64,000 bases of DNA, taken from an uncultured bacterium (GTDB taxonomy: Bacteria; Patescibacteriota; Microgenomatia; UBA1400; UBA12108). The position numbers were made by a program, and so were the translations under genes. This document shows, in pieces, positions 10,426 to 63,857 of this stretch (the first letter of the stretch is position 1; every line of letters starts with the position of its first letter). The notes under the pieces are model-generated. The model did no database searches. It saw only the letters and a program-made list of their open reading frames with translations, and was not told the origin of the DNA. The DNA lies in assembly GCA_963981525.1 (NCBI GenBank), contig CAXCDZ010000001.1, positions 11,217 through 75,216 of the forward strand, written 5' to 3'.

Positions 10426-10447
10426 TATATCTGATTAGATATAAATG

Positions 10448-22317: not shown

Positions 22318-22319
22318 AA

Positions 22320-24759: not shown

Positions 24760-24762
24760 GTT

Positions 24763-27014: not shown

Positions 27015-27015
27015 A

Positions 27016-28943
<1,928 letters not shown>

Positions 28944-35942: not shown

Positions 35943-35950
35943 TATATAGA

Positions 35951-45477: not shown

Positions 45478-46295
45478 CTTTGTCCTTGCTGTTTCTCAAA
45501 TAATCCTTCGGCATGCTCTGGATTTTCGGGATGCTGTTGCATCTCGAATAACTTTGCGTAGCTCATAAAGACCGAGAAACCCTGGTAAATACTCTGGATC
45601 AGGCCGATCTTGCCGTCAAGTAGTCCTGCTTTGAATATGCCTCGCCTCACCATCTCCATCTTGAGTTTGCGCAGAAGAGTGAGTGAAGTAACTGGTGCCA
45701 TTTCTCCGTCATAATACTGCTCTGCTTCTTTGTCGGTATACCTGTCAGTTTTGTTGACGATGTACTCCAATGATTGATCCTTGTGATGCTCCATATGATT
45801 CCTGAGTTGACCTAACTCACCTCGGAATGTTGGGGTAGAGTGGATGTCGGTGGGCCAATCCAAGAAATCGGCCTTGCGAAATAACCTAACCACGTAGTCA
45901 GTGCCCCATCCCCCATATTTAAGTGGGTATCCAAGAGAGAAGTTGAGACGAGGAAGCTTGTAAGCTGGTGAAGGAGAAGGTGACTTGATAATTGCGACAA
46001 TCTCACCCTGCAGTTGAGGAGTAATAACTTCGTCAAAATCCATAATGAGAACCCAGTCGCCCTTGGCATCACGTACCTGCTGGGCACGAATCTCTTCGAC
46101 AACGCGAGAGGCTGGACGAGCGATAAAGATTAGATTGAGATTGTAGTTTTTTGCAAGCTGAAGCAGACCTCTATCCTCTTTCATCTCCATCGCATAAACA
46201 GTGATGTTGTCGGCAAAAGAAATGCTCTTAAGCAGATTCTCAAAGGTATCTAGATTATCTTCTGGGGCAATCTGAGTAATGGCTGAGAGTGTCAT
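45474..46295 (-). CDS. GT2-like (GT-A) glycosyltransferase
   Basis: 'GDWVLIMDFDEV' DxD region. GT-A-like N-terminal half. Confidence 0.5.
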   Translation of the reverse strand: MTLSAITQIAPEDNLDTFENLLKSISFADNITVYAMEMKEDRGLLQLAKNYNLNLIFIARPASRVVEEIRAQQVRDAKGDWVLIMDFDEVITPQLQGEIVAIIKSPSPSPAYKLPRLNFSLGYPLKYGGWGTDYVVRLFRKADFLDWPTDIHSTPTFRGELGQLRNHMEHHKDQSLEYIVNKTDRYTDKEAEQYYDGEMAPVTSLTLLRKLKMEMVRRGIFKAGLLDGKIGLIQSIYQGFSVFMSYAKLFEMQQHPENPEHAEGLFEKQQGQR

Positions 46296-47743: not shown

Positions 47744-48623
47744 AGTTGTTTGTTAAGAAATCTAAAAATGCAGCGCGTCTGATTGGACTACTCCAGTTGC
47801 GGAAAATAGCTTCTCGAAATAGAGCGAACTGGAGCCTAAGAGAGCCATATCGTTTGCCTATCATGAAGCGATTGCGAGTGATGTAGTAATCAACTAGTGG
47901 ACTACCAGAAACAGTGGTTGAAGAGTTTCGGTGGTAAACCATGAGCTTGGGGTTGTATTTAACTTCAATCCCGGCCTTAGCTGCTTTGAGACAGTAATCT
48001 GAGTCCTCAAGATATAGAAAGAAAGGCTCGTCCAACATGCCAATCTTCTTAAACACTTTCCTGGGAACTGCAATGTAGCATCCAGTAATGAACTCAACAT
48101 CCAGCTCTTTGTCATGTTGACCTTTGTCTACCTCATCGACTCCGAAGTGGCGGGCTATAGCCATGCCCCAGTCCATGTAACCACCGGCATACCAGATGAC
48201 GTCTCCCCTACCTTTTTGTTTATCATGATACTCATACCCCTTGGCGTAGTAGATCTTGGCACCTGCGATGCGATTTTTGCCATCCACGTACCTGAAAGCT
48301 CGGTAGAATAGATTGGGGTCAACCTCGGTGTCATTATTGAGAATGTGCACTACCTTGGCACCCATTCTCAAGGCCTTCTTGATTCCGATATTGTTACCAA
48401 CTGAGAAGCCCACATTGCCACCTGCATCAATTAGATCGAGGTCGGGGAACCTTTTTTTGAGCTGGGGAATCGAGTCGTTGCCAGAACCGTTATCGACGAC
48501 AATGATGTGAGGCTTGTCCTTAGAATTGTTGATTGAGTTGATGGCGACTTCTGTGTCTTCCCACTTCTTGTAGTTGATCATCACAACTGCGTGTTTGATC
48601 TTGCTTCTCTTCTTTTTTTTCAT
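47691..48623 (-). CDS. Glycosyltransferase family 2
   Basis: 'HAVVMINYKKWEDTEVAINSINNS...HIIVVDNGSGNDS' and 'LYLEDSDYC'. Confidence 0.8.
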   Translation of the reverse strand: MKKKKRSKIKHAVVMINYKKWEDTEVAINSINNSKDKPHIIVVDNGSGNDSIPQLKKRFPDLDLIDAGGNVGFSVGNNIGIKKALRMGAKVVHILNNDTEVDPNLFYRAFRYVDGKNRIAGAKIYYAKGYEYHDKQKGRGDVIWYAGGYMDWGMAIARHFGVDEVDKGQHDKELDVEFITGCYIAVPRKVFKKIGMLDEPFFLYLEDSDYCLKAAKAGIEVKYNPKLMVYHRNSSTTVSGSPLVDYYITRNRFMIGKRYGSLRLQFALFREAIFRNWSSPIRRAAFLDFLTNNFGNKNDKIFAISAKMAK

Positions 48624-49513
48624 ATTACCTTTCTGATTATTTTGTCTTTGAGACTCGACTTACCTATCTTACTTGTCCAGTGAAGAGACTCTTTGTAGCC
48701 ATGACGGAAAAACTCCTTAGGATGACTGACTAACTCATTCTCACTTGCGAGACTCTTGTACTGATTCTTTTCCCAGTAGAAGAAGAGAACAAGATAATAA
48801 TAGATTAACTGTAAAAATGCCAAGACAAATCCATGCATCCCATCCTTGTATCCCTGGTCAAAAAAGAAACGAGAGACGAACTCAGAAACTGATCTTTTCA
48901 TTGTATGCTGGAGAGTGATTGGTTTGCCCTGGGTTATGGCATCACTGGCTTCTGACTCTGCGTAACGAAAACTCCTATTGAGATAGTCTGAAATGCTGGT
49001 GTAGTTCTCGTGGATGAGGGCGTACTTCTCTTTTGGCTCGAGTTCTAGAATATCCCCTTTGACATCTGGTTTGGCGTGGATGTATTTGGGCCAACTGACT
49101 TTGCTTTTTTGGACAAACCGGATCTGATGATCTGGCCACCAACGACTATGTTTGATCCATTTGCCAAAAACAAAGTTCTTGCGAGGGATCTCAACTCCTG
49201 CATACTCACCATCTTTGGCAACTTGCTGGAGAATGGTTTGGAGAGACTGGGTGAGTTGCTCATCAGGGTCAATCACGAGAACATAGTCGTGCGCGGCGTA
49301 CTTGAGTGAAGATTGCCTAATCTCTTCGACTATCTCTACCCTCTTATGAGAGATGAGGTTGGCCTTGTGCTTTTTTATCACATCCTTTGTCTGATCATTA
49401 CTCTCCAGATCCACTACTGTAATATCATCTGAGAATCCCTTGAGGGAAGTTAGGCAGCGATCTAGACTCTCCGCTTCATTATGGGTGACGATAATTACTG
49501 AGATATTAGACAT
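48620..49513 (-). CDS. Glycosyltransferase family 2
   Basis: 'ISVIIVTHNEAESLDRCLTSLKGFSDDITVVDLESNDQT' and 'VIDPDE'. Confidence 0.75.
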   Translation of the reverse strand: MSNISVIIVTHNEAESLDRCLTSLKGFSDDITVVDLESNDQTKDVIKKHKANLISHKRVEIVEEIRQSSLKYAAHDYVLVIDPDEQLTQSLQTILQQVAKDGEYAGVEIPRKNFVFGKWIKHSRWWPDHQIRFVQKSKVSWPKYIHAKPDVKGDILELEPKEKYALIHENYTSISDYLNRSFRYAESEASDAITQGKPITLQHTMKRSVSEFVSRFFFDQGYKDGMHGFVLAFLQLIYYYLVLFFYWEKNQYKSLASENELVSHPKEFFRHGYKESLHWTSKIGKSSLKDKIIRKVI

Positions 49514-49534: not shown

Positions 49535-50998
49535 TTATGACTTTTTGAAGGAATTGGCGAGAATATTCTTGACTTCGGCCTTGAGGAATTTGCCATCTAG
49601 TGTGTAGATGAGAATGGAGTAAACAATGATGCCAAGGATGATAGCTAGAATAAGTGTAAATAAGCTCGTGACAAAGAACTTATTAAAGAGAAAAATGGTA
49701 GATGCCATGACAAGTGAAGCCAAGAGAGGAATGCGGATGGAGTTAAGAGTATTGACTTTAACCACCTTGTTCATCTCGCGAATAACGAGCGGGAAGGTGA
49801 GGTAGGTAATAATGAAGATAGTAATTGTAATACCGACAAAACCAACATACTTGATCATCGGCAAACCGATCCCCCATGTCATAAGAGTGTACAAGACCAT
49901 AAGTTTGAGGACTACTTTTGGCTTGCCAAGTGCGTAGAGTGCGTTGGTGTAAGTCGTAGTCACGATGACTGGGAGAGCGGCGGCAAGCAACCACAGGAGT
50001 GCCGGAAGAGCTGGGAGCCATTTGTCACTTTTGTCAGCGTAGAGATACTGAAGAAGGCTAGTGGAGGTGACCATAAGCCCAGTCACGGCTGGAAAATACA
50101 GAATACTCATGAGATGAGTTGACTTCTCTAGCCAGCGACGGAGGCGCGCCTTGTCATGTTGAATGCGAGAGTAGGTGGGGAAGGTGATTCTGGAGACAAT
50201 CGTGATGATCTCCATTGGACGACTACTGATATTCTGTGCCAGGTTAAGAAATCCGACGGCGACTGGACCATAGAAAAAGGCAATCACAGTTGGGGTGATA
50301 TTATCCTTGAGGAGTGCAAGGAGAGAGTTGAGTTGATAAGGTACGCCAAAACTAAGAAGCCCTTTGATCGACTTTTTGTCAAACCCCCACCCCATTTTCC
50401 AAGGAGCAATAATATTAAGAGAGACTGCCCCGAGAAATGTTCTTGCTAATACTGCAACTGCTAGACTCCAGACACCATATCCCTTGAACGCCATAAAGAC
50501 TGCTATTCCATTGTAGGCAACAGTCTCTAGGATCTCTGGGATAATCAGAATATCAAAGCGAAGTTTGCGTTCAAGAAGAATCGAGGGGATAGTTTTGAAT
50601 GAAGTAAGGAAGATGCTAAAGCTGAGCGCTCTAATTAGCCACATTCCCTGTGAACCCAAGTCGTAGATGTTGGAAACATACGGCGAGACTACCCAGGCAA
50701 TAAGCATGAGGAAAGTTACCAATAATTGCTGAATGGTGAAGGTGGTTCTGATGTCCTTGAGATCAAGCTCTTCCTTTTTTTGGATCAAGGCAGCGCCAAG
50801 ACCAACATCAGAGAAAAAAGCGAGGAAAGTAAAAACGATAAAAGTAACAATCGCAAAGATTCCAAAAGTTTCTTGGGGAAGGGTTCGCGCGAGAAAAATG
50901 ACTCCAAAAGTATCAATTACCTTGAGAATGATACGTCTAAAAGAAAGTGTGAACACCCCCTTAAAAGCACGTTGTTTGAGATTATCTAGATTTGACAT
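49535..50998 (-). CDS. Wzx-like oligo/polysaccharide flippase (MOP superfamily)
   Basis: 'LKQRAFKGVFTLSFRRIILKVIDTFGVIFLARTLPQETFGIFAIVTF' N-terminus. ~14 TM. Confidence 0.7.
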   Translation of the reverse strand: MSNLDNLKQRAFKGVFTLSFRRIILKVIDTFGVIFLARTLPQETFGIFAIVTFIVFTFLAFFSDVGLGAALIQKKEELDLKDIRTTFTIQQLLVTFLMLIAWVVSPYVSNIYDLGSQGMWLIRALSFSIFLTSFKTIPSILLERKLRFDILIIPEILETVAYNGIAVFMAFKGYGVWSLAVAVLARTFLGAVSLNIIAPWKMGWGFDKKSIKGLLSFGVPYQLNSLLALLKDNITPTVIAFFYGPVAVGFLNLAQNISSRPMEIITIVSRITFPTYSRIQHDKARLRRWLEKSTHLMSILYFPAVTGLMVTSTSLLQYLYADKSDKWLPALPALLWLLAAALPVIVTTTYTNALYALGKPKVVLKLMVLYTLMTWGIGLPMIKYVGFVGITITIFIITYLTFPLVIREMNKVVKVNTLNSIRIPLLASLVMASTIFLFNKFFVTSLFTLILAIILGIIVYSILIYTLDGKFLKAEVKNILANSFKKS

Positions 50999-52514
50999 AT
51001 AGGTATCCTACTACAAAGAGAGTAATAAGCGAGATGAATGAAGCAATGCTCTCTAGAAGAGTGTGTGACTGAGTAATAACTATCTCGTGAGAATCGTCAA
51101 GAAGATCAAACTCAATAAGCCCATCTTGACTTGGACGTAAGGCTAGTGGCATACCATTATCAGTAGCTACCCAAGTTGGGTAGTAGGTACGAGGGAGAAC
51201 AAAGGTGCCGGGACCTTCTTGGCTTGTTGGGAGAGATGGAGCTTGAGACTCGGGAAATGAGGACACCCAGACAGGCAAGAATTCTGGGACTTTGGCTGCT
51301 AACTCATTTTGCAAAAAAGTTGTGTTGGTAAATTCCTGATCACTGTATGGTTTTTGAGCTTGAGGTGAGAAATACTTGAGATTAAAAAACAGTAATAACG
51401 AGATTGTAAGGATGGTGTAGAGGGTGCGCAACTGAGTGGACTTGAATAGTGTGACTGAGAGACCCGCCAAGACCGAGACTGCAAGAGAGATGAGAGCCAA
51501 AAATCGCCAAGGAAACTGAATGACCTGCAATACAAAAATATTATCCCAAAGGATTCTCGAGAATGAGGTAGTCATGATGACAGAGAACAAGAGAGTCACA
51601 CCGGCAAATAGAGCGAGAGTTTGAGCTTTTTTGTGACGGAGACCCACAATGACACCGAGGCCGGCGAGTATTAGGTGAAGTTTGCCAATCTTAAAAGAAA
51701 TCCCATCCTCCAAACCAGGGGCAGATCCTCCAAACCCCCAGACAGAATCCCATAATTGAGAGGGAGAGACGAAGTGGAGTGAGTAGTTGGTGAGGCGAGA
51801 GAGAGCGTCGACCTGGACGAAGTCTCTTTCAAAAATCAGCGGTAAGAGATAAAAACTTGCCAGCAACAATGAGAGCATGGCTGTGATTACTACCCTCCTG
51901 AGATGCTTGCCTTGATATAGCAAAGTCCAGACCATGAGAAAAGGAGCAACGAGAAGTGGAATCAGGTTGTGAGAGAGAAGAAATAATGCCGTGATTACAC
52001 TAGTTACTCCGACTCGTCGAGGGTTGAGAGAGCGCCATGCCCAGAACAGCCATGGCAATAACATGATCGCAAAAAGCTCAGCATAAGAACCTCTGACAAA
52101 TAGTCCGATTGCACGATACGGCACTAACAAAAAACTAACAGCTGAAAGAAGACCAACCAGATGACCATACCTCTTCATCAAGTAGTACATGCCAATCCCT
52201 CCCGACAAACTGATGAGGATCAGGCTCAGTTTGAGAGCGGTGAGGAGAGTTGGGGTAAAAATGCCAATAAAAGCAACTAAGTAATAGAAGGCAGGAGCAT
52301 AAAAATGAAAGAGAGGATAACCATAACCAAGGTTGGCTGTGTTGGCCCAGACTGCAGGAATCTGACCATCCATCAGAGTCTCTCTGAGTAGATAGACTCT
52401 TCCCAAGTGAGTTGGATCATGCACATCGAAGAAGCCAAACTTGAGTAATGGAAGGCAGGTTAGAAGGAGAACTCCTAGGATAATTAACCAGATGAGAGTA
52501 GATTTTTTTGGCAT
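50982..52514 (-). CDS. Polytopic membrane protein, GT-C-like (paralog of 38087..39697)
   Basis: 'FFDVHDPTHLGRVYLLRETLMDGQIPAVWANTANLGYGYPLFHFYAPAFYYL'. Confidence 0.5.
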   Translation of the reverse strand: MPKKSTLIWLIILGVLLLTCLPLLKFGFFDVHDPTHLGRVYLLRETLMDGQIPAVWANTANLGYGYPLFHFYAPAFYYLVAFIGIFTPTLLTALKLSLILISLSGGIGMYYLMKRYGHLVGLLSAVSFLLVPYRAIGLFVRGSYAELFAIMLLPWLFWAWRSLNPRRVGVTSVITALFLLSHNLIPLLVAPFLMVWTLLYQGKHLRRVVITAMLSLLLASFYLLPLIFERDFVQVDALSRLTNYSLHFVSPSQLWDSVWGFGGSAPGLEDGISFKIGKLHLILAGLGVIVGLRHKKAQTLALFAGVTLLFSVIMTTSFSRILWDNIFVLQVIQFPWRFLALISLAVSVLAGLSVTLFKSTQLRTLYTILTISLLLFFNLKYFSPQAQKPYSDQEFTNTTFLQNELAAKVPEFLPVWVSSFPESQAPSLPTSQEGPGTFVLPRTYYPTWVATDNGMPLALRPSQDGLIEFDLLDDSHEIVITQSHTLLESIASFISLITLFVVGYLYVKSR

Positions 52515-52517: not shown

Positions 52518-54005
52518 CTATGGGATGAGACGATACAACCTAATCCAGCTGTCATCGTGTTTTTTGTATGCGAGAATCTCTTCTAAGCCAGGAGGGGTTG
52601 AGTCAATCTGAGTATTGTTGAGAACAAAGTAAATAGTGTTTTCATCTGATTCTCTGGCACGAAGGTCTTGGGGGGGTATTTCGTTAAGAGGCCAATAACC
52701 AGTGATTGTGAGATTGTTGAGACCATATGTATAGAGCTCGAGACCGTGGGGAAGGAGACCAAAGGTTCCTTCGGTGCCAACAATAATCTGTTGTCCACCG
52801 GCACTACGAGCCTCATCTGTGAGGTACTGGCTAATCTCCTTGACCCCATTTCCAGAGGCCCAGCCATCTGTGTAATCAGCATCATCTGAGAGGAGTGGGG
52901 TCTCTAGCGGGGAGGTGATCGCGAGAATAATAAAAAACATTGGCATAATGCTCAAACCAAGACTGATGAGAAATGAGCGCTTGAGCTCAAGGCGCGAGAC
53001 AAAATAAGCTACGAATAATAAGAAATATGGGACGACAAATAGAATGTAGCGTGAGCGATATAAACTAGCGATTGCAATCTCTGCTGCAAGAGGAACAAGA
53101 AACCAGACAGAGAGATGGAGAGTTTGCTTGAGATTCTTTTTGCCCAGTTGATAGGCACCAAATAATCCAGTGAAGGCAACAGGCCAAGTAAGATAATGGA
53201 GAAGCCACCTGGTGGAGTTAACGATGTTTTTGCCGAGACGAATTGGATCTTGAAGTATTTCGGCGATTGGTACTGCGAAGTCATTGTTTTTTTGGATGAT
53301 AATGTGCATCCACGGAGAGAGACGCTGGATATTGTAGATCATTTGTGCGAGAACAAAGATCAGGAGATATTGACCAAGATATTGCAACAGGGAACTACGC
53401 TTCTGAAGTGAGGTGTGATTGGTGATCAATCCGGCTGGGAACAAATATAAGTAGATGACTGCGGGTGATTTGACTAGCATCGCTAGGCCAATCGTGATAC
53501 CGATAATCAGAGCTAGATCTAGGCGAGGTTTGTTGTGATAGATCAAACTCAAGCAAAAAATCAGAACACCAAAAAATGTCAGCATGCTCCCGACTACTGC
53601 AAAACGATTGTAAAAGAAAAGGAATGGAGTAATCGTCCCAAAAAAAGCAGCCCAGTATGCTGTACGCTTGCCCCCCGTAAGAAAGCCTGCATACCACATC
53701 GCAATAATCGTACCAAGACCAGATAGGACTGAAACTAGACGGATTGCGAATAAGGGGTTGTTAATAATCTTGAGAAACGGCATTGCGATCCACATAAATA
53801 ATGGCTGCTTACCGTCAGTCAGAGAGATGAATCTCCACGAAGCATCGTATAGTGAGATCTGAGACCAGCGACCGTAGATTGCCTCATCGACAAAGATCGG
53901 AAGGCCTGTGAGGTTGGGGAGGGTAATAACAAAGTAGAAGATGAATATAAGAGCAATGAGCAGGTAGTCGCTTCGAGTAAGAGTGGGGAACAATTGCATT
54001 GTCAT
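52518..54005 (-). CDS. GT-C fold glycosyltransferase, ArnT/PMT_2 family
   Basis: 'LPIFVDEAIYGRWSQISLYDASWRFISLTDGKQPLFMW'. Confidence 0.7.
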   Translation of the reverse strand: MTMQLFPTLTRSDYLLIALIFIFYFVITLPNLTGLPIFVDEAIYGRWSQISLYDASWRFISLTDGKQPLFMWIAMPFLKIINNPLFAIRLVSVLSGLGTIIAMWYAGFLTGGKRTAYWAAFFGTITPFLFFYNRFAVVGSMLTFFGVLIFCLSLIYHNKPRLDLALIIGITIGLAMLVKSPAVIYLYLFPAGLITNHTSLQKRSSLLQYLGQYLLIFVLAQMIYNIQRLSPWMHIIIQKNNDFAVPIAEILQDPIRLGKNIVNSTRWLLHYLTWPVAFTGLFGAYQLGKKNLKQTLHLSVWFLVPLAAEIAIASLYRSRYILFVVPYFLLFVAYFVSRLELKRSFLISLGLSIMPMFFIILAITSPLETPLLSDDADYTDGWASGNGVKEISQYLTDEARSAGGQQIIVGTEGTFGLLPHGLELYTYGLNNLTITGYWPLNEIPPQDLRARESDENTIYFVLNNTQIDSTPPGLEEILAYKKHDDSWIRLYRLIP

Positions 54006-54023: not shown

Positions 54024-55148
54024 TTAACTTCTTCTATGTTTGGCAAAGATTTTTGAGAAAAATAGATAGATTAGGGGTGCGGCAAAAGTGAGTAGGAAAT
54101 TGAACTCCCTGGTGTAAGTCCAGAATCCAGTTGAAACATAGGGGAAATAGTAATAGAGAGCAAGAATCGTCATAAGAGAGGAAAAGATAATGGTAATGCG
54201 TGAATTAGTGAGAAGTGAGGCTGTGAAGAACCAGATCAGATACCATGGCTGGAAACGATCAATCCAGATTAGGAGAGGAAGATATAGTAGCCAGGCTGAG
54301 AAAAATATAATCTGATCTTTGCTCAGGTACCTCTGGAGAAAATATGCAGGAACCATAACTATGGCCATCAGTTTGATCGAAATTCCATAGAAAAGCGAGA
54401 TAAATGATTGCTTGTACTTGTTCTTGAGAAACAAAAGGATTGCCAGGAGATAAAAAGCCATCATGATCCCATCATTGTGACTGTTAACGAGCGTCTCGAA
54501 CAAGATCAGAGGATTGAGTGCGTAGGTGAGCTGAAGGAGGGGAATGTTTTTGACTGATTTTAGCTTGTGTGCGATCTCCCCTATCAGCTTGATACTCCAG
54601 AGATAGAAGCCATATGGAATCAGCTTGGCGATAAGGAGAGAGAGCGTGAACTTGCCAAGACCAAGAAGGTAAACTGGAGAATAGAGAAGGGTATGACCAT
54701 ATCCGTAAGCTGCGGGAGTGTGGACCCAGCGCATAAATCGAAGCCATGGATCTCCCTCAAAATGGAGAGGCGGGTATATATGAGGGTTGGCATGATAGTG
54801 CCAAATGATCTTGGAATGGAACATGTAGTTATAGACGTCATAAGAGAACATGGGATAGCAAAGAGTTAAGATGAGCGAAAGAATAATAATCTTAGGCCAA
54901 GGGAACTTGGTGAGTTTTTTGCCAGACTTAAGAGTCCACAAATAGAGGAGGGCAAAACCGAGGGTAAATAATAAATAGATATTGCCAGATAGAGGACGAT
55001 CAAAATAAACCAAGTGCTGCAACTTGGAGATGAGTGAGAGAATGCTGGGGTTACTGGTTAGAGTGAGATTGAGATCAACAAAACCATATGAATATGCAAA
55101 AAAACCTAGTGTTAACAAGAGATAACTAACAAGAATTACAAAGCTCAT
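54024..55148 (-). CDS. Uncharacterised polytopic membrane protein (possible DUF2029/GT87-like GT-C)
   Basis: ~10 TM. 'YDVYNYMFHSKIIWHYHANPHIYPP'. Immediately downstream of a DPM1-like GT2. Confidence 0.4.
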   Translation of the reverse strand: MSFVILVSYLLLTLGFFAYSYGFVDLNLTLTSNPSILSLISKLQHLVYFDRPLSGNIYLLFTLGFALLYLWTLKSGKKLTKFPWPKIIILSLILTLCYPMFSYDVYNYMFHSKIIWHYHANPHIYPPLHFEGDPWLRFMRWVHTPAAYGYGHTLLYSPVYLLGLGKFTLSLLIAKLIPYGFYLWSIKLIGEIAHKLKSVKNIPLLQLTYALNPLILFETLVNSHNDGIMMAFYLLAILLFLKNKYKQSFISLFYGISIKLMAIVMVPAYFLQRYLSKDQIIFFSAWLLYLPLLIWIDRFQPWYLIWFFTASLLTNSRITIIFSSLMTILALYYYFPYVSTGFWTYTREFNFLLTFAAPLIYLFFSKIFAKHRRS

Positions 55149-55909
55149 AAATCGTATTTATGGAGAGTGTCGTTAACCCTGACGCGCATAATCTCAAAAA
55201 GCATCTCCAGAGATTCTTTGACAAAATTGCGAGACTTGCCGAGAGTGGTATCCTCGTTTTTCCAGATTACCCGCACTTCTTTGATACTTGCTCCGAGTTT
55301 TTTGGCGATGTGCAACAACTCAACGTCGTAGGCGGTGACTTTCCAGCCAGAAGCATTGTTAGCTCTCCCAAAAAGACGCATGTGTGAGAATATATCTCTT
55401 GCAAGACTAGTCTTGATTAACTTGAAGCCACACTGGGTATCTTTGATCTCGGGTAGCAATATCAAGCGACGAACAAGAAGGAAGACTATTGAGGCAAGCT
55501 GGCGAATAGGAGTGGTGTCAGTACGCTTGACTCCCCGAGAACCTATGACAACATCGTACCCTTCTGTAGTATGTGGAAGTAACTTGCTGAGCTCTTTGAT
55601 AGGAGTCGACTGGTCCATGTCAGTGAGGAGTACGTGCTCCCCCTTGGCCTTATTGATACCAGATCTCAGGGCATATGGCTTGCCTGCATGTTGGTTGTAC
55701 AGCAACTTGATCTCAGGGTTATTGGCAATGAAATCTTTGATTGCAAGAAGACTAGAGTCAGTTGAGCCGTCGTCAGAGATGATGACTTCGAATGTAAATT
55801 TTTGTTTTTTGAGATAATCCAAGATGTCTTGGAGTACTCCACGCTTGATGTTCTCTATTTCGTTGTAGTTGGGGATGAGGATGGTAACCTTTGGGGATTT
55901 GGTTTTCAT
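55145..55909 (-). CDS. GT2, DPM1/polyprenol-phosphate glycosyltransferase-like
   Basis: 'VTILIPNYNEIENIKRGVLQDILDYLKK...EVIISDDGSTDSS...YALRSGINKAKGEHVLLTDMDQSTP...VVIGSRGVKR'. Confidence 0.75.
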   Translation of the reverse strand: MKTKSPKVTILIPNYNEIENIKRGVLQDILDYLKKQKFTFEVIISDDGSTDSSLLAIKDFIANNPEIKLLYNQHAGKPYALRSGINKAKGEHVLLTDMDQSTPIKELSKLLPHTTEGYDVVIGSRGVKRTDTTPIRQLASIVFLLVRRLILLPEIKDTQCGFKLIKTSLARDIFSHMRLFGRANNASGWKVTAYDVELLHIAKKLGASIKEVRVIWKNEDTTLGKSRNFVKESLEMLFEIMRVRVNDTLHKYDL

Positions 55910-55910
55910 A

Positions 55911-57419
55911 TTATTCTTTCTCGATATTTATTGTTCCCACATATGTATCATAGGAGATTCTTTCGTTTTGTACCATAACCCTTTTTTGACTAAACTCATT
56001 TATCTGAGGGTGTCCCAGATATTCAGCAATTGAGGGATGGGTGGGACCAGTCAGGAAAAGTAGGGTGGTAGTCTCCTCGTCGCTCGAGCAGGGACCCCTC
56101 TCACAGATGACATATACAAGATCCTGGAGATCATTTTTGGGAGGGTTATCAGAGAGGGAGAGGTAGTACTGGATTGTTGTTATTGATGAACCTTGAGCAT
56201 TGACTGTGTTGTAGGGACGATTGTTGGCTTGAGAAAGTATATAGTCTGAGATCTCAACTGCCCTCTCTACCTGGATAGATGATTTACTGCGCAGATTGTA
56301 GATCAGAGTAGGATAGCTCCAGATAAGTAATCCCGCGAGGAAGATGACGCTAATCGCTCTAACCACTGGTCTGGCTCTAGTAGCAAGCGCTCCAAACATA
56401 AGTGCAATAGTGGGAAAAAGATGTGAGACATAGTGTACGTTTATGTTTTCTCGAAGAAAAGAAATAGTGATTATTGTGCCTATCAAGAAAAACCAAAGCT
56501 GCTTGAGATCTTTGGAATGCTTGTTTCGTCGCTTGAACAAGGCAGGAAAGAGGAGAAGGAGAAAGCTCGCTGAGTTTACTAAGCTAGATGGGACTTCTTT
56601 GAGCGCGATTGATTGGCTTCCAACAATACCTTTGGATACCATCACAATATTATTCTTGACCCTTTCAAGATAACCTGGCCCCACACTGTTTTCTGCTTTT
56701 TTGGAGACTAGATACTTAAAGAAAGCTTGAGTATTCACAAAATCATGTCGAAGCTCAAAAGCCCAGAATGGAGCTGTGACAATAACAAACCCAGATACGA
56801 TAAGTAAAATGCGTTTGATTAATTCTTTTTTTGGAATTATTTTTATATCTTGCTTGAGTAGAGCGAGAGCAGTCAAGACTACCATGATGAGAGCGACATA
56901 ATGGAGCTGAAAGAGAGCGCCGGCATAGAGTCCCAAAATAAACCACTTCCACCGCCCAACATAATCAAAAACAAAGAGAAGAAGGACTGAGAAAAAAGGC
57001 ACTAAATTGGGATTCCAGGAAGATCTAGAGTAATGGAGCATGACTGGGGACAACGCGTACATAAACCCTGCAACTAAGCCACCCCAAAACCCGAATTTCT
57101 TTTTTCCCCAAGAAAAAATAAGAAAGGTGGTTGCAACTCCGAACAGACCTACCATAATTGCTGGACCAGCTGGATGCATCTGAGAGATGAGAAGAGCAGG
57201 TGTAATAAGGTAGTAATAGAGAGGGCCCAAGTACATATTGCCCACAGAAGTCTCTGGACCCAGGAGGATTGGGGTCTTGTTGTCTATCATGCGTTTGGCG
57301 ATCAAGACATCCCTGGCCTCATCACCCTGAAAGATAAATGTCTGGTCTATCCTGTATAGATGTGTAAAAGAAGAAACTAGGAGAAGAATGATCGTCAGAA
57401 TGGTAAAAAGTTTTTTCAT
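55911..57419 (-). CDS. GT-C fold glycosyltransferase, ArnT/PMT_2 family
   Basis: 'HLYRIDQTFIFQGDEARDVLIAKRMIDNKTPILLGPETSVGNMYLGPLYYY'. Confidence 0.7.
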   Translation of the reverse strand: MKKLFTILTIILLLVSSFTHLYRIDQTFIFQGDEARDVLIAKRMIDNKTPILLGPETSVGNMYLGPLYYYLITPALLISQMHPAGPAIMVGLFGVATTFLIFSWGKKKFGFWGGLVAGFMYALSPVMLHYSRSSWNPNLVPFFSVLLLFVFDYVGRWKWFILGLYAGALFQLHYVALIMVVLTALALLKQDIKIIPKKELIKRILLIVSGFVIVTAPFWAFELRHDFVNTQAFFKYLVSKKAENSVGPGYLERVKNNIVMVSKGIVGSQSIALKEVPSSLVNSASFLLLLFPALFKRRNKHSKDLKQLWFFLIGTIITISFLRENINVHYVSHLFPTIALMFGALATRARPVVRAISVIFLAGLLIWSYPTLIYNLRSKSSIQVERAVEISDYILSQANNRPYNTVNAQGSSITTIQYYLSLSDNPPKNDLQDLVYVICERGPCSSDEETTTLLFLTGPTHPSIAEYLGHPQINEFSQKRVMVQNERISYDTYVGTINIEKE

Positions 57420-58123
57420 GAGTTGAGTCTTTTCCAGAGAACAAAACTCTCCCTAAGGGCACGAAGAATTACTCTGGGATTACTGCCAGTCTGGATGCCC
57501 ATCTTACGCTCATAATGGTTGATTGGTGTCTGATGGATGGTGGCCCCATTTCTAATAAGTTTCGTCATGAGCTCAGTGATGGTGATAGCGCTGCTGGTCT
57601 CAAGAGTGATGTTGTCTAGCAGGTTCTTGGGGATTAGTTTGTATGCACAGTCCACATCCTTGAGGCGGAGACCAAACAGAAGCAGGTTCCAGTATTTGAG
57701 TAAAACTTGAGCAAGGATAAGGCGCAATAAAGGATCTCTTCTCTTGTGGCGATAGCCAATAACTACGTCTGCTTGATCGCGCAGTGAGATGAAGTGGGGG
57801 AGTTCGTCAAACTGAAATTGTCCGTCAGAGTCAGTAAAAAAGACCCAGTCATACTGAGCTTCTTTGAGGCCGGTCTTAATAGAAGCTCCGTAGCCAAGAT
57901 TCTTGGGATGGGAAACCAATTTCACGAATGAGTGCTTCTTGGCATACTCTGCAACCAGTAGAGAGGTGTCGTCGCTGGAGCCATCATCAACTACAATGAT
58001 CTCGTATTTGTCTGATACTTTTTGGATATATTTGGCGGCGTCGGCGAGAGTTTTTTTGATATTCCCGGCCTCGTTGTAGGCAGGAAAGAAGACTGTGAGT
58101 TCTTTTAGCTTATCTCTAATCAT
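57416..58123 (-). CDS. GT2, DPM1/polyprenol-phosphate glycosyltransferase-like
   Basis: 'LTVFFPAYNEAGNIKKTLADAAKYIQKVSDKYEIIVVDDGSSDDT...GYGASIKTGLKEAQYDWVFFTDSDGQF...VVIGYRHKRRD'. Confidence 0.8.
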   Translation of the reverse strand: MIRDKLKELTVFFPAYNEAGNIKKTLADAAKYIQKVSDKYEIIVVDDGSSDDTSLLVAEYAKKHSFVKLVSHPKNLGYGASIKTGLKEAQYDWVFFTDSDGQFQFDELPHFISLRDQADVVIGYRHKRRDPLLRLILAQVLLKYWNLLLFGLRLKDVDCAYKLIPKNLLDNITLETSSAITITELMTKLIRNGATIHQTPINHYERKMGIQTGSNPRVILRALRESFVLWKRLNS

Positions 58124-58156: not shown

Positions 58157-59827
58157 TTATTGTTTTCTCATGTAGAGACTGATTGTTGTGGAGTCATAGA
58201 TGAGCTCAAACTGCACCGGAGAAGAGAGTGCGCGAACTGCATCTTCTGTGCCCCATTCTGTTTTGTAGATGTAGTAATAATCGGCGGGCACTGAAGTTAT
58301 ACTACCACCTTTGTACTTGTTGACTACATCTAGGCGAGGTTGATAACTAGAGTTGAGAACCATCAGTTGATCTGTGTCTAGATAATAAGTGTATTTCTCG
58401 GCAAGGGCAGGAATAACTGCGTTTCTGTGAACAGGGTTATTAACATAAACTATTCCCGGAGGAGCTTCCTTGAGCACACTGAGAGCTTCTAGCTCTTCGT
58501 TACCAATAATTTCTTGATCTGCCGTAAGAAAGCGGAGTTGCTCGAGATTGTTGGGAATCGTAAAGATAATAATCAAAAAAATGATTAACCAACTGCCTCG
58601 CCATTTTGAGTGAGCTAGATCAGACAACCACTCTACCAAAAGTATCCCTGAAAGCCAGGCTCCGTAATAAAGAAACTGCATGGTGTTGTACCAGCCGCCA
58701 TTTTGCACAAACAAGATCGGTGCCAGAACGGTCAATAAAATTGTAAATGAGATTGCTTGATAAAATGGAGACAATTTCTTCTTGAAGATTGAGGAGGCCA
58801 CATATATCCCCGCCAGAATGCGAGTCCCAAAATTGATAAGGAGAAATAGTCCGAGAGAGTATGCTTCGATTGCCCATAATCTGGGGGAGAAGCTAGTCGC
58901 ATTCTCATAGAGATGGTACCTGGCGAGCGTCAAGCTATGGTTGTAAAAGAGGAGGGAGTCGTCTATCAATAAGTGAGTCAGTGCAAGTGGTGCCCAACTA
59001 AATGGAATGCTAGAACCTGAGGAAACTCCATAAAAAACGAGCAGACCTAGAAAACTACCAGTGATTATCAATAATGCTTGAGTAAGAAAATCTCTCAATG
59101 CAAGCCTTTTCCCAACAAACTCTAGCAATTTGAAAATAGAAGTAAATAGGAGAGCTACAACTCCGCCATAGAACTTGAGACCAAAAAGAACGAAAAACAG
59201 AATTCCGAGGATGATGGATTGTCTTTTTTGATCCTTGCGGTTAATAAGCATGATGATCCAAAGGATGACTGAGAGCGAGAAGGCAAACTGAAGATTGAGA
59301 AACATAGTGGCAGGCTGAATGGAGGTTACAACTGGGAAGCCACGCAGAGACGAGTAGAAAAAAGTGCGATCCTGATAGAGGGTTGCGAGATAACTAAAGG
59401 AACTACCAAAATATAAGAAAAAGGCAAGAAGATTGGCTTTGAGAAGGTTGGATGTTCTAGTTTTAATAAAACGAAGAACGCTCCATATATATAAGAGTGC
59501 AGCAATAATTGGAAGAAGTTGGAAAAAGCTAAAGAAAGGTGAGATTCCTAGCCTGCTCAAAAGATGAAGGATATAATCCAAGAGAAAGTTGTAACTGGAG
59601 AGTGATTCGCCCGCCATAAGAGGATTCTGGAGCGGCCAACTCCCAAAACCAAGTTTTGCGAGACTGATATGCCAGAGAGAGTCATGCAGATGCCACTGAC
59701 CAATCTGAAGATTGCAGATCCCCGTTGTGCAATGCATAAAACCATTTGGAAGAATAAATGATAGAGAGAGAAACGCAAAGAAAAACGACTGAATAACTAA
59801 CCACTTATTGAGTCTAAGTTTCTTCAT
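58157..59827 (-). CDS. Uncharacterised polytopic membrane protein, 'C..C / HxHD-WH' family (paralog of 61025..62680)
   Basis: 'HCTTGICNLQIGQWHLHDSLWHISLA...GESLSSYNFLLDYIL', 'QNGGWYNTMQFLYYG'. ORF track start 60028 trimmed to 'MKKLRLNKWL' (ATG 59825-59827) so that it does not run through the divergent gene. Confidence 0.5.
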   Translation of the reverse strand: MKKLRLNKWLVIQSFFFAFLSLSFILPNGFMHCTTGICNLQIGQWHLHDSLWHISLAKLGFGSWPLQNPLMAGESLSSYNFLLDYILHLLSRLGISPFFSFFQLLPIIAALLYIWSVLRFIKTRTSNLLKANLLAFFLYFGSSFSYLATLYQDRTFFYSSLRGFPVVTSIQPATMFLNLQFAFSLSVILWIIMLINRKDQKRQSIILGILFFVLFGLKFYGGVVALLFTSIFKLLEFVGKRLALRDFLTQALLIITGSFLGLLVFYGVSSGSSIPFSWAPLALTHLLIDDSLLFYNHSLTLARYHLYENATSFSPRLWAIEAYSLGLFLLINFGTRILAGIYVASSIFKKKLSPFYQAISFTILLTVLAPILFVQNGGWYNTMQFLYYGAWLSGILLVEWLSDLAHSKWRGSWLIIFLIIIFTIPNNLEQLRFLTADQEIIGNEELEALSVLKEAPPGIVYVNNPVHRNAVIPALAEKYTYYLDTDQLMVLNSSYQPRLDVVNKYKGGSITSVPADYYYIYKTEWGTEDAVRALSSPVQFELIYDSTTISLYMRKQ

Positions 59828-59858
59828 AACGATATTAGTATAGCAGTCGATCGAGCAT

Positions 59859-61028
59859 ATGCAGTATGATATGGGTATGAGGAAAAATATTCTTGTAGCA
59901 ATTGCAATTGCTATCGTATCTCTAGTAGTGTTCTGGTCACCATTTCTTCTCAAGGCTGACAAACTCTGGGGAATTGAGTTAAAAGACCACTCGATGCAGA
60001 CGATTGTCGCTAATTTTGATGGAATCAACTTCTTGATAGTGGCAAAATCTCTCTACAATCAAGGAATCATTGAGACTGATTATCCGAGTATTTTGTCAGG
60101 GAGAGTGAACCTCTATTTCTCTGCCCATTACCCAGGATTCCCACTCATGATTAGAGCTTTTGATATCTTTCTCTCTGGACCAAATGCCCTTCTGGCTGCA
60201 ATCGCACTGAGCAATATCCTCCTTTCTGTTGCGCTCTATTACCTATATCAAAAGATTACCCCGAAAGGTAAGGGAGCGTTGTATCTGACAGCTTTGGCGT
60301 TATTTATCCCAGCTAGGATGCTCTCGATGCGGACAGTGGGTTCCAACGAAAGCCTATTCATCTTCTTTGTTCTAACTTCACTCTTGTTGTCATCTAACAA
60401 AAAATATTGGTTGTCGGGAATCGCTGGAGCTGGAGCCGTACTAACCAGAAGCCCAGGGATCTTACTTATGTTTGCTTATGCTGTTCCCCTATTAGCTAAT
60501 CTTAAGAAAAAAAATAAAATTGATTGGAAAAGCTACCTCCCATATTTATTGATCCCTCTTGCCCTAGTATCTCTATGGATTTTCTACGGACTCAGGTTCG
60601 GAGATTTCTTGGCTTACTTTAAAGTTGGTGGAAATATCAACCTCTATTTCCCCCCATTTATGACATTTGGCTCTAACTTTGACTGGATCTCTGGGATGTG
60701 GCTAGAGGATATTATCTATACATACCTATTTTACGGCGTGGGAATACTGCTTTTTTTTCAGCACCAGATAAAGAAGAATAAAAGCCTAGCAGTACTTGGA
60801 TATTTTGCGCTTATATACTACACGATGACCTTGTTTATAGTGCATCGCGATATTGCGCGCTACTCTCTACCAATTGCTCCTATTGTAATTGCGGGGTATG
60901 CTCCATTTATTCAGTCCAAGTATCTTAAGTACGCCTTAGTTGCTCTGATCGTCCCAATCTATCTTTATGCCTGGAACTTCATACTCAATAATGTGCAACC
61001 GGTTATGGACTGGTCAGCTTTCTTATGA
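59859..61028 (+). CDS. PIG-V/Gpi18-like (GT76-like) mannosyltransferase-family membrane protein (paralog of 35951..37075)
   Basis: 'AKSLYNQGIIETDYPSILSGRVNLYFSAHYPGFPLMIRAF' versus 'IARYGYQDTGTQAFFPVYPLMIRAL'. Multi-TM. Confidence 0.5.
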   Translation: MQYDMGMRKNILVAIAIAIVSLVVFWSPFLLKADKLWGIELKDHSMQTIVANFDGINFLIVAKSLYNQGIIETDYPSILSGRVNLYFSAHYPGFPLMIRAFDIFLSGPNALLAAIALSNILLSVALYYLYQKITPKGKGALYLTALALFIPARMLSMRTVGSNESLFIFFVLTSLLLSSNKKYWLSGIAGAGAVLTRSPGILLMFAYAVPLLANLKKKNKIDWKSYLPYLLIPLALVSLWIFYGLRFGDFLAYFKVGGNINLYFPPFMTFGSNFDWISGMWLEDIIYTYLFYGVGILLFFQHQIKKNKSLAVLGYFALIYYTMTLFIVHRDIARYSLPIAPIVIAGYAPFIQSKYLKYALVALIVPIYLYAWNFILNNVQPVMDWSAFL

Positions 61029-62680
61029 AGAGCAAAGTCCTGACAACTATATTAGTTGTAGCAGGACTGGTTGCGAGCTTGCTAGTCATATTCCCAAGTG
61101 GGAGAGAGTATTGTTATCAGGACCAGTGCGGAGTAATGTTCTGGGGAGCTCATGAGCATGATGCTATATGGCATCTAGCCGTATCTAACACCCTATTCTC
61201 TAATTTCCCATTCGAGATGCCAAATATGTCAGAGAGTATGATGAGTGGATACAATTATCTCTTAGATATTGTGATTGCGACTACCTCATTTGTTACCCGT
61301 ATCCCTGCCTCAAATTTATATTTCCAGATCATCCCGATATTATGGTTTGGTCTGTTTGTATGGTTAAGTAGCAAATTTGCCAAGCAATATCATAAGAGCA
61401 AATACTATCTACCCGCATTGCTATTTTTTAGTTTTTTTGGGAGCTCACTCGGCTATTTGATCACTCTCAAGAATGCTGGCTCTTTCTGGGGCTCAAGCTC
61501 TATCCTCTCTATGCAACCATTGCAGAACCTGCTTAACTTACAGTTTTCCCTATCCCTTTTACCATTCCTGGCAATCTTGATCGGACTGGTGAATAAGAGG
61601 AGGAGCGTCAAGGACTATGTTCTTTATGGAATATATGCATTCATAGCAATAGGACTAAAGCTCTATACGGGGGTTGGAATAGTGATGCTACTCATTGTGG
61701 ACTGGGTAATAAGAGCGATCCGCAGGAAAGACCCAATACTACTATCAACTCCTAAGCTGCTGATTACCGGACTATTCTCGATACTTGCTGTGATAATCTT
61801 TTATGCGCCATTTTCGCAATCAACTGGAGCTCCATTCTTACTTGATCCCATGGCTACAGTTAACCCCATCGTAGAGGACTCTAGCCTACTATATCTACCC
61901 AAGACTGCTGAGAGACTCTACTCTCTTAGAGGAGTCAAACTAGTAGTAATTGAGCTTTTTGTGCTCGGACTATTCCTAGTATTTAATTTTGGCTCCAGAA
62001 TATTTGCAGCGTTTGGGCTAGCAGGTAAACAAGAACCAAATGAGATCAGGGAAATAGTTGGCTTAACTGCTATTATCATGCTGATATTGTCTATACTCCT
62101 AACCCAGAGGGGGGTATGGTGGAACACCGTCCAGTTCTTGTATGTCTCCCTTTTCCTTTTTAATATTCTGGCAGCAGAGGGTCTGGTGAAAATATTTCAA
62201 TTACCAAAATTTGGAATAGTGCTAGGTGTCACCATCGTTCTTATTACTATCCCCACAAACATTGATGTTATGAGGTCGTTTTCTAACTTCCCAGGAAATA
62301 GCTATATCTCTAGTAATGAACTCTCGGCGCTAGAGTTTTTGAAAAAGCAAGATCCTGGGATAGTACTAACAGGCGGACTCCAATTACGCGGCTCAAAGAT
62401 AGCTTTACCCCCGCTTGAGGCAACCTACGACACAACATATGTCTCAGCCTACTCTCACAAACAAAGCTATCTCTCAGATCTTATCCAACTCCGACTAACA
62501 AATATTGATTATCATGAGAGACTAGAGATGGTAAGTAGATATGATTGCGAAGTCCTTGAAGATGTTAAGTATTTGTATGAGGTAAATGAAAGTCTATACG
62601 TATCAAATTACCAAGATTGTGGGAGAGGATTGGAAACAATCTATAGCAACGATACTGCATCAGTCTATCTTGTGAGATAA
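61025..62680 (+). CDS. Uncharacterised polytopic membrane protein, 'C..C / HxHD-WH' family (paralog of 58157..59827)
   Basis: 'YCYQDQCGVMFWGAHEHDAIWHLAVS...SESMMSGYNYLLDIVI', 'QRGVWWNTVQFLYVS'. Start overlaps the upstream stop (ATGA). Confidence 0.5.
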   Translation: MKSKVLTTILVVAGLVASLLVIFPSGREYCYQDQCGVMFWGAHEHDAIWHLAVSNTLFSNFPFEMPNMSESMMSGYNYLLDIVIATTSFVTRIPASNLYFQIIPILWFGLFVWLSSKFAKQYHKSKYYLPALLFFSFFGSSLGYLITLKNAGSFWGSSSILSMQPLQNLLNLQFSLSLLPFLAILIGLVNKRRSVKDYVLYGIYAFIAIGLKLYTGVGIVMLLIVDWVIRAIRRKDPILLSTPKLLITGLFSILAVIIFYAPFSQSTGAPFLLDPMATVNPIVEDSSLLYLPKTAERLYSLRGVKLVVIELFVLGLFLVFNFGSRIFAAFGLAGKQEPNEIREIVGLTAIIMLILSILLTQRGVWWNTVQFLYVSLFLFNILAAEGLVKIFQLPKFGIVLGVTIVLITIPTNIDVMRSFSNFPGNSYISSNELSALEFLKKQDPGIVLTGGLQLRGSKIALPPLEATYDTTYVSAYSHKQSYLSDLIQLRLTNIDYHERLEMVSRYDCEVLEDVKYLYEVNESLYVSNYQDCGRGLETIYSNDTASVYLVR

Positions 62681-62681: not shown

Positions 62682-63857
62682 CTATTTTTTCTTCCAGATA
62701 ATCTTAGAGTAAGCAAAGAAGTTCCAGAACATGCCGACCAGAATACCGGTGACGGCAAACATCGTTCCGGTGTCAACTGCGAACTTGATAATCGGGAGAG
62801 TAAAGAGATTGTAGAAGCCGATATATCTCTCACCTAGAATAGCAATCACTTGCTGGATCAAGATCGAACCACCTGAGGCGAGGTTGAAGGCCACGAATTT
62901 TGCTGGTACTTGCTTAGCCTTGAGCTTGCGATCAGCGAAGGTCCAGAGATTGCTAAAAATAAAGTTACTGATAATGGCAGTCTCGATAGCGAGGAAGAAG
63001 GCCACCTGGAATGGCATTAGAGAGCGATAGATCTGCAAGAAGGCGATCTGGATGAGCGCACCGATACCTCCTGTGACTGCAAACTTAAAGATGCGATGGT
63101 TAAGTATTTTTTCGAGTCTGTTTTTCATGATGTACCTTAATGTATTAAATATATATTCTGAACCTAATTTGGAGTGACCGTGGGTACGATCAATAAAAAG
63201 AAATGGTACCTCGCCAATAGTGGCACCTACTTCGAGAGATTTTACTAAGAAGCCGATCTGCCAAGTGTACCCATCGAAGGCGCTGTGTGAGAGCGAGGGG
63301 AGAATGTGCTTAACGAGACTTGTTCTAATTGCGCGGTAGCCTGTTGTCCAGTCAGTGACCTTAAAGTTGAGCATTGTGGTACGAATAAATAGATTGCCAG
63401 CAAGTGACAGGAACTTGCGGTGTGGGGGCCAGTCCGCAGGTATTGCTCCACCTGGGATGTAGCGAGAACCAAGGACTAGGTCAGAACCAGACTCGATTAG
63501 TGCTAGCATTGGGACGGCCTTTGCCGGATTATGAGAGAGGTCTGCATCCATCTGGATGATAATCTCTGCACCCAACTTGTCGATTGCGTAGCGCATTCCT
63601 TTTTTATAGGCATGGCCGAGACCAGCTTTTTTGCGATTCTTGAGGAGCTTGATATAAGTCCTAGTCTTTGCGAGCTCTGTGATTGCCTTGCCAGTGCCGT
63701 CAGGACTCTGATCATCTACGAAAAGGATCTGGAGCTGATAATTGGTGAGGGATTTTTTGACTTTTGCTATAGCCTTTACCAAGGTTTTAATATTTCCCAC
63801 TTCGTTATAGGTGGGAATGATGATGACTACTTTTTGCTTAGATTTGTTTTTTTCCAT
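62682..63857 (-). CDS. GT2 polyprenol-phosphate glycosyltransferase (DPM1/ArnC/GtrB-like) fused to a C-terminal GtrA-like membrane domain
   Basis: '[25 protein letters not shown]...[12 protein letters not shown]...[16 protein letters not shown]...[13 protein letters not shown]', then the GtrA-like '[20 protein letters not shown]...' 4-TM tail. Confidence 0.8.

Follow-up and report, generated by a model that had tools for sequence, protein, structure and literature searches.

We analysed a 64-kb stretch of DNA (hereafter the window) from an uncultured Microgenomatia bacterium (contig CAXCDZ010000001.1), nearly all of which is filled by a glycan-biosynthesis cluster lying mostly on the minus strand at a G+C content near 0.43. 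At its centre of interest are four consecutive minus-strand genes that encode, in the order of transcription, a family 2 glycosyltransferase (GT2), a membrane protein, a second GT2 and a second membrane protein, here called GT2a, GTCa, GT2b and the MptA/B-like enzyme (Table 1). The original prediction was that these genes form two consecutive modules, each a polyprenol-phosphate-sugar synthase followed by a membrane transferase, and that the same logic recurs at three other sites in the window. The two pairs are present, with all four open reading frames (ORFs) exactly where they had been placed. Both GT2/membrane-protein junctions are ATGA overlaps, and GTCa and GT2b are separated by a gap of 1 nucleotide (nt). 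A recent tandem duplication as the origin of the two pairs was considered and rejected, because the GT2s are just 30% identical and the two membrane proteins have no detectable sequence similarity.

Table 1. Window coordinates of the four core genes, their neighbours and the other sites discussed (aa, amino acids; TM, transmembrane).
Gene or protein	Position	Strand	Description
GT2a	57416-58123	-	235 aa; short GT-A glycosyltransferase
GTCa	55911-57419	-	502 aa; predicted ArnT/PMT/ALG12-like GT-C-fold membrane glycosyltransferase
GT2b	55145-55909	-	254 aa; short GT-A glycosyltransferase
MptA/B-like enzyme	54024-55148	-	374 aa; predicted MptA/B-family compact GT-C
PMT/PMT_2 (GT39-like) GT-C	52518-54005	-	Pfam PMT_2 44 bits, PMT 42 bits; hhalign 91.8% to GTCa profile
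PTPS_related (GT-C-like) membrane protein	50982-52514	-	PF10131 52.7 bits; hhalign 85.5% to GTCa profile; in conserved block
MOP-superfamily (Wzx-like) flippase	49535-50998	-	Pfam Polysacc_synt_3 199 bits; 61-77% identity in conserved block
Polytopic membrane protein, no known family	58157-60028	-	Directly upstream of GT2a; 9 predicted TM segments; no Pfam/NCBIfam match
GT2 + GtrA/DPMS_TM protein	62682-63857	-	391 aa; Glycos_transf_2 91 bits, GtrA_DPMS_TM 52 bits
GT2c	30048-30710	-	220 aa; no TM helix; AglJ 103 bits, PpgS 97 bits; PDB matches DPMS, ArnC
PMT_2 GT-C	30707-32347	-	PMT_2 30.2 bits; 34% identical to 40556-42172; stop overlaps GT2c start by 4 nt
Full-length GtrB/PgfS-type synthase	16122-17042	+	306 aa; PgfS 286 bits full length, ArnC 162 bits
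Polytopic membrane protein	17039-18586	+	515 aa; 4-nt overlap with 16122-17042 gene

Pfam and NCBIfam scans of the 53 ORFs in the window returned 13 GT2-type genes (one of which, 2228-3082, was recognised only through BLAST similarity to other GT2s), 5 GT4 genes, 2 Wzx/MOP flippases, SDR epimerases, a DegT aminotransferase and methyltransferases. Polytopic membrane proteins number more than 20, and at least 14 of them resemble glycosyltransferases of the GT-C fold, either by Pfam family (PMT, PMT_2, PTPS_related, DUF2142), by BLAST links or by hhalign alignment to a GT-C profile. The same sequence is carried by a 91.6-kb metagenomic scaffold, on which a UDP-glucose dehydrogenase and three SDR epimerases precede the right end of the window, and the taxa annotated for homologues are Woesebacteria, Roizmanbacteria, Curtissbacteria and other Microgenomates, which places the source in the candidate phyla radiation.

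We compared the five GT2s flagged by the original prediction (GT2a, GT2b, GT2c, 16122-17042 and 62682-63857) with characterised enzymes. GT2a and GT2b match Pfam Glycos_transf_2 with 98 and 87 bits and contain the DXD motif that is invariant in their family alignments (D98-S-D100 and D97-M-D99, respectively). The top NCBIfam matches of the five are PgfS, ArnC, PpgS, AglJ and a haloarchaeal dolichyl-phosphate (Dol-P) hexose transferase, those of GT2a being PgfS, ArnC and PpgS, all far under the equivalog cut-offs; five control GT2s from the window instead match TuaG, EpsE, MftF, a rhamnosyltransferase family or TIGR04283 arsenosugar-type GT2s. ArnC, GtrB and DPMS are the best PDB matches of the flagged GT2s: GT2a aligns best with ArnC (9bhc, 4e-15) over residues 6-217, and the GT2b family profile finds DPMS (5mlz, 5e-24), GtrB (5ekp, 7e-21) and ArnC (6e-18). 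The JGI annotation of GT2b is 'dolichyl-phosphate beta-glucosyltransferase'. A neighbour-joining tree (200 bootstraps), a distance method here limited to four references (E. coli ArnC and YfdH/GtrB, and partial P. furiosus DPMS and Synechocystis GtrB sequences) and two controls (WcaA and WcaE), places ArnC, the two GtrBs, DPMS and exactly the five flagged GT2s in one clade at 87% bootstrap, and the other eight window GT2s with WcaA/WcaE or alone. GT2a, GT2c and GT2b form a loose short-form group within it (77% for GT2a with GT2c, 50% once GT2b is included), and pairwise identity among the five is 26-34%. Together these data support the predicted membership of the five GT2s in the polyprenol-phosphate-sugar synthase clade, since by NCBIfam, PDB and tree alike they are the only GT2s of the window that cluster with characterised polyprenol-phosphate or dolichol-phosphate sugar synthases, and neither GT2a nor GT2b groups with a family that uses non-lipid acceptors.

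A second paralogous GT2 family is present on the minus strand (4118-4921, 39697-40515, 45474-46295 and 48620-49513). We considered these four as further lipid-sugar synthases and ruled them out: they form a separate clade at 92% bootstrap, and 39697-40515, the sole member searched against the PDB, best matches GmaR and SunS, which glycosylate proteins or peptides. Two of the four (39697 and 45474) directly adjoin a GT-C gene.

The membrane partners of the focal GT2s were evaluated in the same way. GTCa matches Pfam PMT_2 (PF13231; GT39/GT83-like) with 23.5 bits, below the gathering score of 26.1, and many of its orthologues at 34-49% identity bear a precomputed PF13231 match. It has a conserved D33-E34-G-R36-D37 motif following the first TM helix (TM1) and a small C-terminal beta domain with two conserved Cys. 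The MptA/B-like enzyme has an invariant Asp25 right after TM1 and, as in all 120 homologues listed, a precomputed match to PF26314 (MptA_B_family, GT87-like); the local Pfam copy returned no family for it. As sequence-profile searches of the PDB with the MptA/B-like, GTCa and 17039-18586 families gave nothing useful, fold comparison was used. The nearest solved structures of both focal partners are users of Dol-P-mannose, Dol-P-glucose, polyprenyl-phosphate (Pren-P) mannose or undecaprenyl-phosphate (Und-P) aminoarabinose (Ara4N), and the oligosaccharyltransferases AglB, STT3 and PglB score below these. By this comparison, GTCa is predicted to have a GT-C fold with an acidic motif in the first extracytoplasmic loop, and the MptA/B-like enzyme is modelled with the PimE/ALG3-like fold of GT87/GT-C enzymes that use polyprenyl-P-mannose-type donors. 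Given that monosaccharides linked to Dol-P or Pren-P are the donors of the closest structures, both partners are GT-C transferases of a type for which the neighbouring GT2 clade makes the required donor. What is encoded beside each focal synthase is thus, as had been proposed, a GT-C-fold transferase.

We evaluated the conservation of the arrangement by scanning GTDB genomes with an MptA/B-like profile, calling local ORFs and comparing them by BLAST to the window. In Microgenomates other than Curtissbacteria (Woesebacteria, Roizmanbacteria and others) the block is collinear at 35-79% identity, with the conserved order GT2-GtrA, two or three polytopic genes, GT2a-GTCa-GT2b-MptA/B-PMT-PTPSr-(...)-Wzx-GT2-GT2-PMT_2-GT2-GT4-GT-C. 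Within the block GT2b is the best conserved gene, at 61-79% identity in these loci, and it lies directly upstream of the MptA/B gene wherever there is room to judge (22/22). More distant relatives were collected in a metagenome scan with a GT2b profile and split at 38% identity. At or above this value, a recognisable GT-C lies directly downstream in 20 of 35 loci and a polytopic protein of no known type in 2 more; the 20 comprise 9 MptA/B-like proteins, 8 like the PMT protein at 52518-54005 and 3 others. Below it, the count falls to 1 of 16. Nothing specific on clusters of GT-C genes in Microgenomates or the candidate phyla radiation emerged from a literature search.

Two further features were seen in the homologous loci. 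In an otherwise collinear block on a 964-kb Microgenomates contig (locus L006), a gene with a phage-typical Bro-N domain (7086-7931) lies between the MptA/B-like and PMT genes. In Chloroflexota, including Ktedonobacterales, MptA/B-like homologues occur in ORFs of 1100-1800 aa (L060, L064, L066, L069, L074-L079, L081, L084 and L085), the length of which suggests a GT-C that may be fused to large extra domains.

Building on these family and fold assignments, conserved motifs and synteny, we consider it probable that an envelope-glycan locus conserved in Microgenomates has these four genes as its core and uses the known lipid-linked monosaccharide route. At the cytoplasmic face, GT2a and GT2b would move a sugar from a nucleotide sugar onto a polyprenyl phosphate, the presumed lipid acceptor. 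The polyprenyl-P-sugar would then be flipped outward, for which the GtrA/DPMS_TM domain of 62682-63857 and the MOP-family protein 49535-50998 are candidates; this flippase step is the weakest link of the proposed mechanism. At the outer face, GTCa and the MptA/B-like enzyme, and probably also the next GT-Cs, would attach the sugar to an acceptor in the envelope, either a glycan or a protein. Given the gene order and translational coupling, the adjacent GT-C is most likely the first user of its synthase's product. With 5 synthase-type GT2s for at least 14 GT-C-like genes in the window, or about three GT-Cs per synthase, the donors are probably also shared with neighbouring GT-Cs (52518-54005, 50982-52514 and others). 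Such sharing has precedents: many mycobacterial GT-Cs are served by a single Ppm1 (PMC3485146), and in the Pgf operon a single PgfS occurs with two GT-Cs (PMC12041528).

Several observations weigh against this interpretation. None of the NCBIfam equivalog cut-offs is reached (16122-17042, 286 bits of 500 for PgfS; GT2c, 103 of 325 for AglJ; GT2a and GT2b, 67 of 500 for PgfS), so that no protein can be named as a particular enzyme or assigned a substrate or sugar. GT2a, GT2b and GT2c lack the C-terminal TM anchor of GtrB and ArnC: no TM segment is predicted in GT2a or GT2c, GT2b has a single hydrophobic helix (137-155), and the C-terminal TM helices of the membrane-anchored GtrB type are found only in 16122-17042. 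No separate GtrA gene lies in or beside the modules, where there is no room between the focal genes and a check of the intergenic gaps turned up no small GtrA-like ORF; the sole GtrA-type domain in the window is the one fused in 62682-63857, and the largest intergenic gap holds a toxin-antitoxin-like pair instead. Gene order in Curtissbacteria is looser, with direct GT2b-MptA/B adjacency in 3 of 11 loci and often another GT-C in between; GT2a is absent from this group, and a GTCa-like gene follows GT2-GtrA. Among Chloroflexota, none of 43 MptA/B homologues has a synthase-type GT2 upstream, although two Anaerolineae loci (L055, L061) have a short one downstream, in the opposite order. Across lineages the GT-C beside GT2b relatives varies between MptA/B-like and PMT-like. 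Neither adjacency to a GT-C nor a 4-nt overlap sets synthase-type GT2s apart in this cluster, the overlaps running along its whole length. Finally, co-evolution of GT2s with their neighbouring GT-Cs was evaluated by mirror-tree over 13 taxa, a test of low power here, given the single phylogeny common to all the genes. The results were mixed, with a partial r of 0.61 for GT2a/GTCa, 0.05 for GT2b/MptA/B, which is null, and 0.48 for GT2b/GTCa.

These points bear most directly on how strictly the genes are paired. The original prediction assigned a dedicated donor to each cognate GT-C, which in its strict form means five private couples, with five distinct polyprenyl-P-sugars each used only by the adjacent GT-C. 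The ATGA overlap of each focal GT2 with its GT-C, the invariant GT2b-MptA/B adjacency in Microgenomates other than Curtissbacteria and the correlation obtained for GT2a/GTCa are all consistent with such couples, and the low identity among the five GT2s, with GT2a and GT2b in separate orthologue groups, fits different specificities. We nevertheless regard strict pairing as unlikely. Five synthases face at least 14 GT-C-like genes, and the partner changes between lineages, as distant GT2b relatives are followed by a PMT-like gene about as often as by an MptA/B-like one (8 and 9 of 35) and Curtissbacteria often place a GT-C between GT2b and MptA/B and keep a GTCa-like gene after GT2-GtrA with no GT2a. 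Moreover, synteny extends over the entire block of at least 20 kb, which means that conserved adjacency cannot count as separate evidence for pairing, and the correlation for GT2b/MptA/B is near zero. One-to-one pairing with five different sugars is therefore not established and conflicts in part with the comparative data, and the 'separate lipid carriers' of the original prediction are more plausibly different sugars on one type of carrier, a polyprenyl phosphate.

A second alternative concerns the short GT2s themselves. Lacking TM anchors, they could be ordinary cytoplasmic enzymes that extend a repeat unit linked to polyprenyl pyrophosphate or glycosylate a soluble or protein acceptor, in which case the GT-Cs would be fed only by 16122-17042 and 62682-63857, the two synthases with a membrane anchor, or by genes elsewhere in the genome. 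The hydrophobicity profiles and the sub-threshold NCBIfam scores given above would agree with this, chondroitin synthase and PgaC are also among the matches of the short GT2s, and the short-form group reaches a bootstrap of only 50%. This alternative appears distinctly improbable to us, given that the short GT2s fall inside the 87% clade with ArnC, GtrB and DPMS whereas the eight other window GT2s fall outside it, that the GT2a alignment to ArnC extends past the nucleotide-binding half, that GT2c fits the model of TM-less PpgS almost from end to end (profile positions 3-216 of 226), and that GT-Cs recurrently flank GT2b relatives. A TM anchor is also dispensable in this clade, as mycobacterial Ppm1 and PpgS are TM-less, proven polyprenyl-P-sugar synthases encoded beside a membrane partner (Ms-Ppm1/Ppm2 and PpgS/Rv3632), with Ms-Ppm1 interacting with its partner Ppm2 (PMC3485146).

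The counts within the window raise the question of whether the modules mean anything at all. A GT-C-like gene is the direct neighbour of 3 of the 5 synthase-type GT2s versus 4 of the 8 ordinary ones, about 14-22 of the 53 genes are GT-C-like or polytopic, and adjacency inside the window alone is no more than chance; conservation elsewhere exceeds chance. That the 'iterated module' is a functionally meaningless, arbitrary reading of a long, dense string of glycosyltransferase genes, in which 4-nt overlaps are common and the polytopic gene 58157-60028 upstream of GT2a would equally permit a 'membrane protein then GT2' reading, as at 30707/30048, is the least likely of all the explanations considered here, because the GT2b subfamily retains a downstream GT-C across divergent metagenomic loci down to 38% identity, the two Anaerolineae loci associate an MptA/B homologue with a short synthase-type GT2 even in reversed order, and GT-Cs of these structural classes biochemically require exactly the product of this GT2 clade.

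The other sites flagged in the window fared unevenly. The GT2-GtrA fusion 62682-63857 exists as described; it has the archaeal DPMS architecture by Pfam, and the tree joins it to P. furiosus DPMS at 82% bootstrap. Its upstream genes for UDP-glucose dehydrogenase and SDR proteins hint at uronic-acid-derived or pentose donors for this enzyme. At 30048-32347 both genes of the proposed pair are present, but the GT2-first order is wrong, the GT-C being transcribed first. At 16122/17039 the genes exist and the GT2 is synthase-type, with two C-terminal TM segments at 219-283 and a position beside GtrB at 95% bootstrap, but 17039-18586 was not confirmed as a GT-C: it has no Pfam match, no PDB sequence match and an hhalign probability of 6% to the GTCa profile. 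A weak match to WsfD (20 bits, E 2.4e-4) was obtained, and its family, with 10 homologues, none of which has a Pfam domain, shows a near-invariant I-D-D-H-E after TM1. This pair is grouped at 15057-19764 with an SDR epimerase and a DegT/ArnB-like aminotransferase, a layout that resembles the Pgf and Arn pathways and, by this analogy, hints at an amino-sugar donor.

Among the neighbours of the core, 52518-54005 lies immediately downstream of the MptA/B-like gene and in other lineages is the direct downstream neighbour of GT2b relatives. The MOP-family flippase 49535-50998, three genes downstream of the focal module, is by its family a candidate exporter of lipid-linked sugars or oligosaccharides; a MATE-family flippase is the third component in a characterised three-component system (PMC11127046). 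For 58157-60028, metagenome gene callers choose a later start that leaves 556 aa. This protein is a paralogue of 61025-62680 (30% identity), and its positional equivalent in locus L008 gave only weak or faint YfhO/PTPS_related matches. In all, three conserved polytopic proteins without a clear family lie between GT2-GtrA and GT2a (58157-62680), two of them on the opposite strand, and this arrangement is kept across Microgenomates; 59859-61028 gave a weak match (45 bits; cut-off 150) to the 'AZOBR_p60025 cell surface glycopolymer formation' family.

Four features elsewhere in the window were also recorded. At 24001-26000 the G+C content falls to 0.33, versus about 0.43 elsewhere, over an FkbM methyltransferase gene and two unassigned ORFs, and this may be a laterally acquired insert. 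The toxin-antitoxin-like pair (10132-10768, minus strand), assigned by eye from its translations, occupies the only 1-kb gap of the glycan cluster and consists of a 106-aa (10448-10768) and a 97-aa (10132-10425) protein, the latter of which resembles XRE-type helix-turn-helix proteins. On the minus strand, 20980-23894 and 25695-28008 make up a second duplicated two-gene unit: the polytopic proteins 20980-22317 and 25695-27083 are 28% identical, as are the upstream membrane proteins 22320-23894 and 27016-28008, and apart from TPR repeats in 22320-23894 the four have no family assignment. Two minus-strand ORFs with TTG starts, 34164-36251 and 35951-37246, are listed with an overlap of about 300 nt; the upstream starts are probably over-extended.

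Extracytoplasmic glycosylation by a three-component scheme is well precedented (PMC11127046), and we compared the locus with its known versions. As in O-antigen glucosylation by GtrA/GtrB/Gtr* of Shigella and Salmonella phages and of E. coli K-12 CPS-53 (yfdG-yfdH-yfdI), a GT2 of this clade would make the lipid-linked sugar (there an Und-P-sugar) that a GT-C uses outside the membrane; the K-12 genes overlap by 4 nt, the same kind of overlap as found here, and 16122-17042 shares with GtrB both its position in the tree and its two C-terminal TM helices. Unlike the Gtr systems, GT2a, GT2b and GT2c have no TM anchor, there is no free-standing GtrA gene, the GT-Cs are PMT_2-like and MptA/B-like, and several modules and many extra GT-Cs are strung together. 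TM-less synthases are shared with the mycobacterial systems in which Ppm1 (with Ppm2) and PpgS (with Rv3632) feed PimE, MptA/MptB, Pmt and Rv3779, but PpgS scores here are 97 and 62 bits against a cut-off of 370, the membrane neighbour is the GT-C itself rather than a Ppm2/Lnt-like or small GtrA-like protein, and the host belongs to the candidate phyla radiation, not the actinobacteria. In contrast to the ArnC/ArnT pathway, which modifies lipid A with aminoarabinose, the module has no equivalents of ArnA, ArnD, ArnE or ArnF, and ArnC has two TM helices. The Streptococcus mutans Pgf operon (PgfS, PgfE, PgfM1, PgfM2), in which a GtrB-type synthase, an epimerase and two GT-Cs glycosylate surface proteins (PMC12041528), resembles the site of 16122-17042, which matches PgfS over its full length and has an adjoining SDR epimerase, but the match stays below the PgfS cut-off and 17039-18586 has no detectable similarity to known GT-Cs. 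P. furiosus DPMS (5mlz) shares its GT2 plus GtrA/DPMS_TM architecture with 62682-63857 and is the best PDB match of the GT2b profile, whereas its TM domain is absent from GT2b.

The genes are best viewed as new members of a known extracytoplasmic glycosylation scheme, repeated unusually many times in a conserved, GT-C-rich envelope-glycan locus; it stands out for its TM-less synthases and for a very high density of GT-Cs in a candidate phyla radiation genome, genomes in this group being typically small. A bolder extension is that the envelope glycoconjugate is built largely outside the membrane from a locus of at least 64 kb, in which at least 14 GT-Cs are fed by TM-less synthases that dock onto them, with synthesis, flipping and transfer in one complex that dispenses with a dedicated GtrA flippase. 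We hold this to be very unlikely; if true, it would amount to a novel way of organising the lipid-linked sugar route and would give candidate phyla radiation bacteria a lipoglycan strategy like that of mycobacteria. As the mechanism itself is not new, the value of the finding lies in annotation and in the cell biology of these organisms rather than in a new principle. To our knowledge, candidate phyla radiation bacteria are uncultured and their envelopes essentially uncharacterised. The locus and its conserved core add compact, well-modelled GT-C families, such as the 374-aa MptA/B-like enzyme, and short synthases as candidates for biochemistry, and they provide a concrete parts list for what is probably a major Microgenomates surface glycan: two TM-less synthases, at least four GT-Cs and a MOP flippase.

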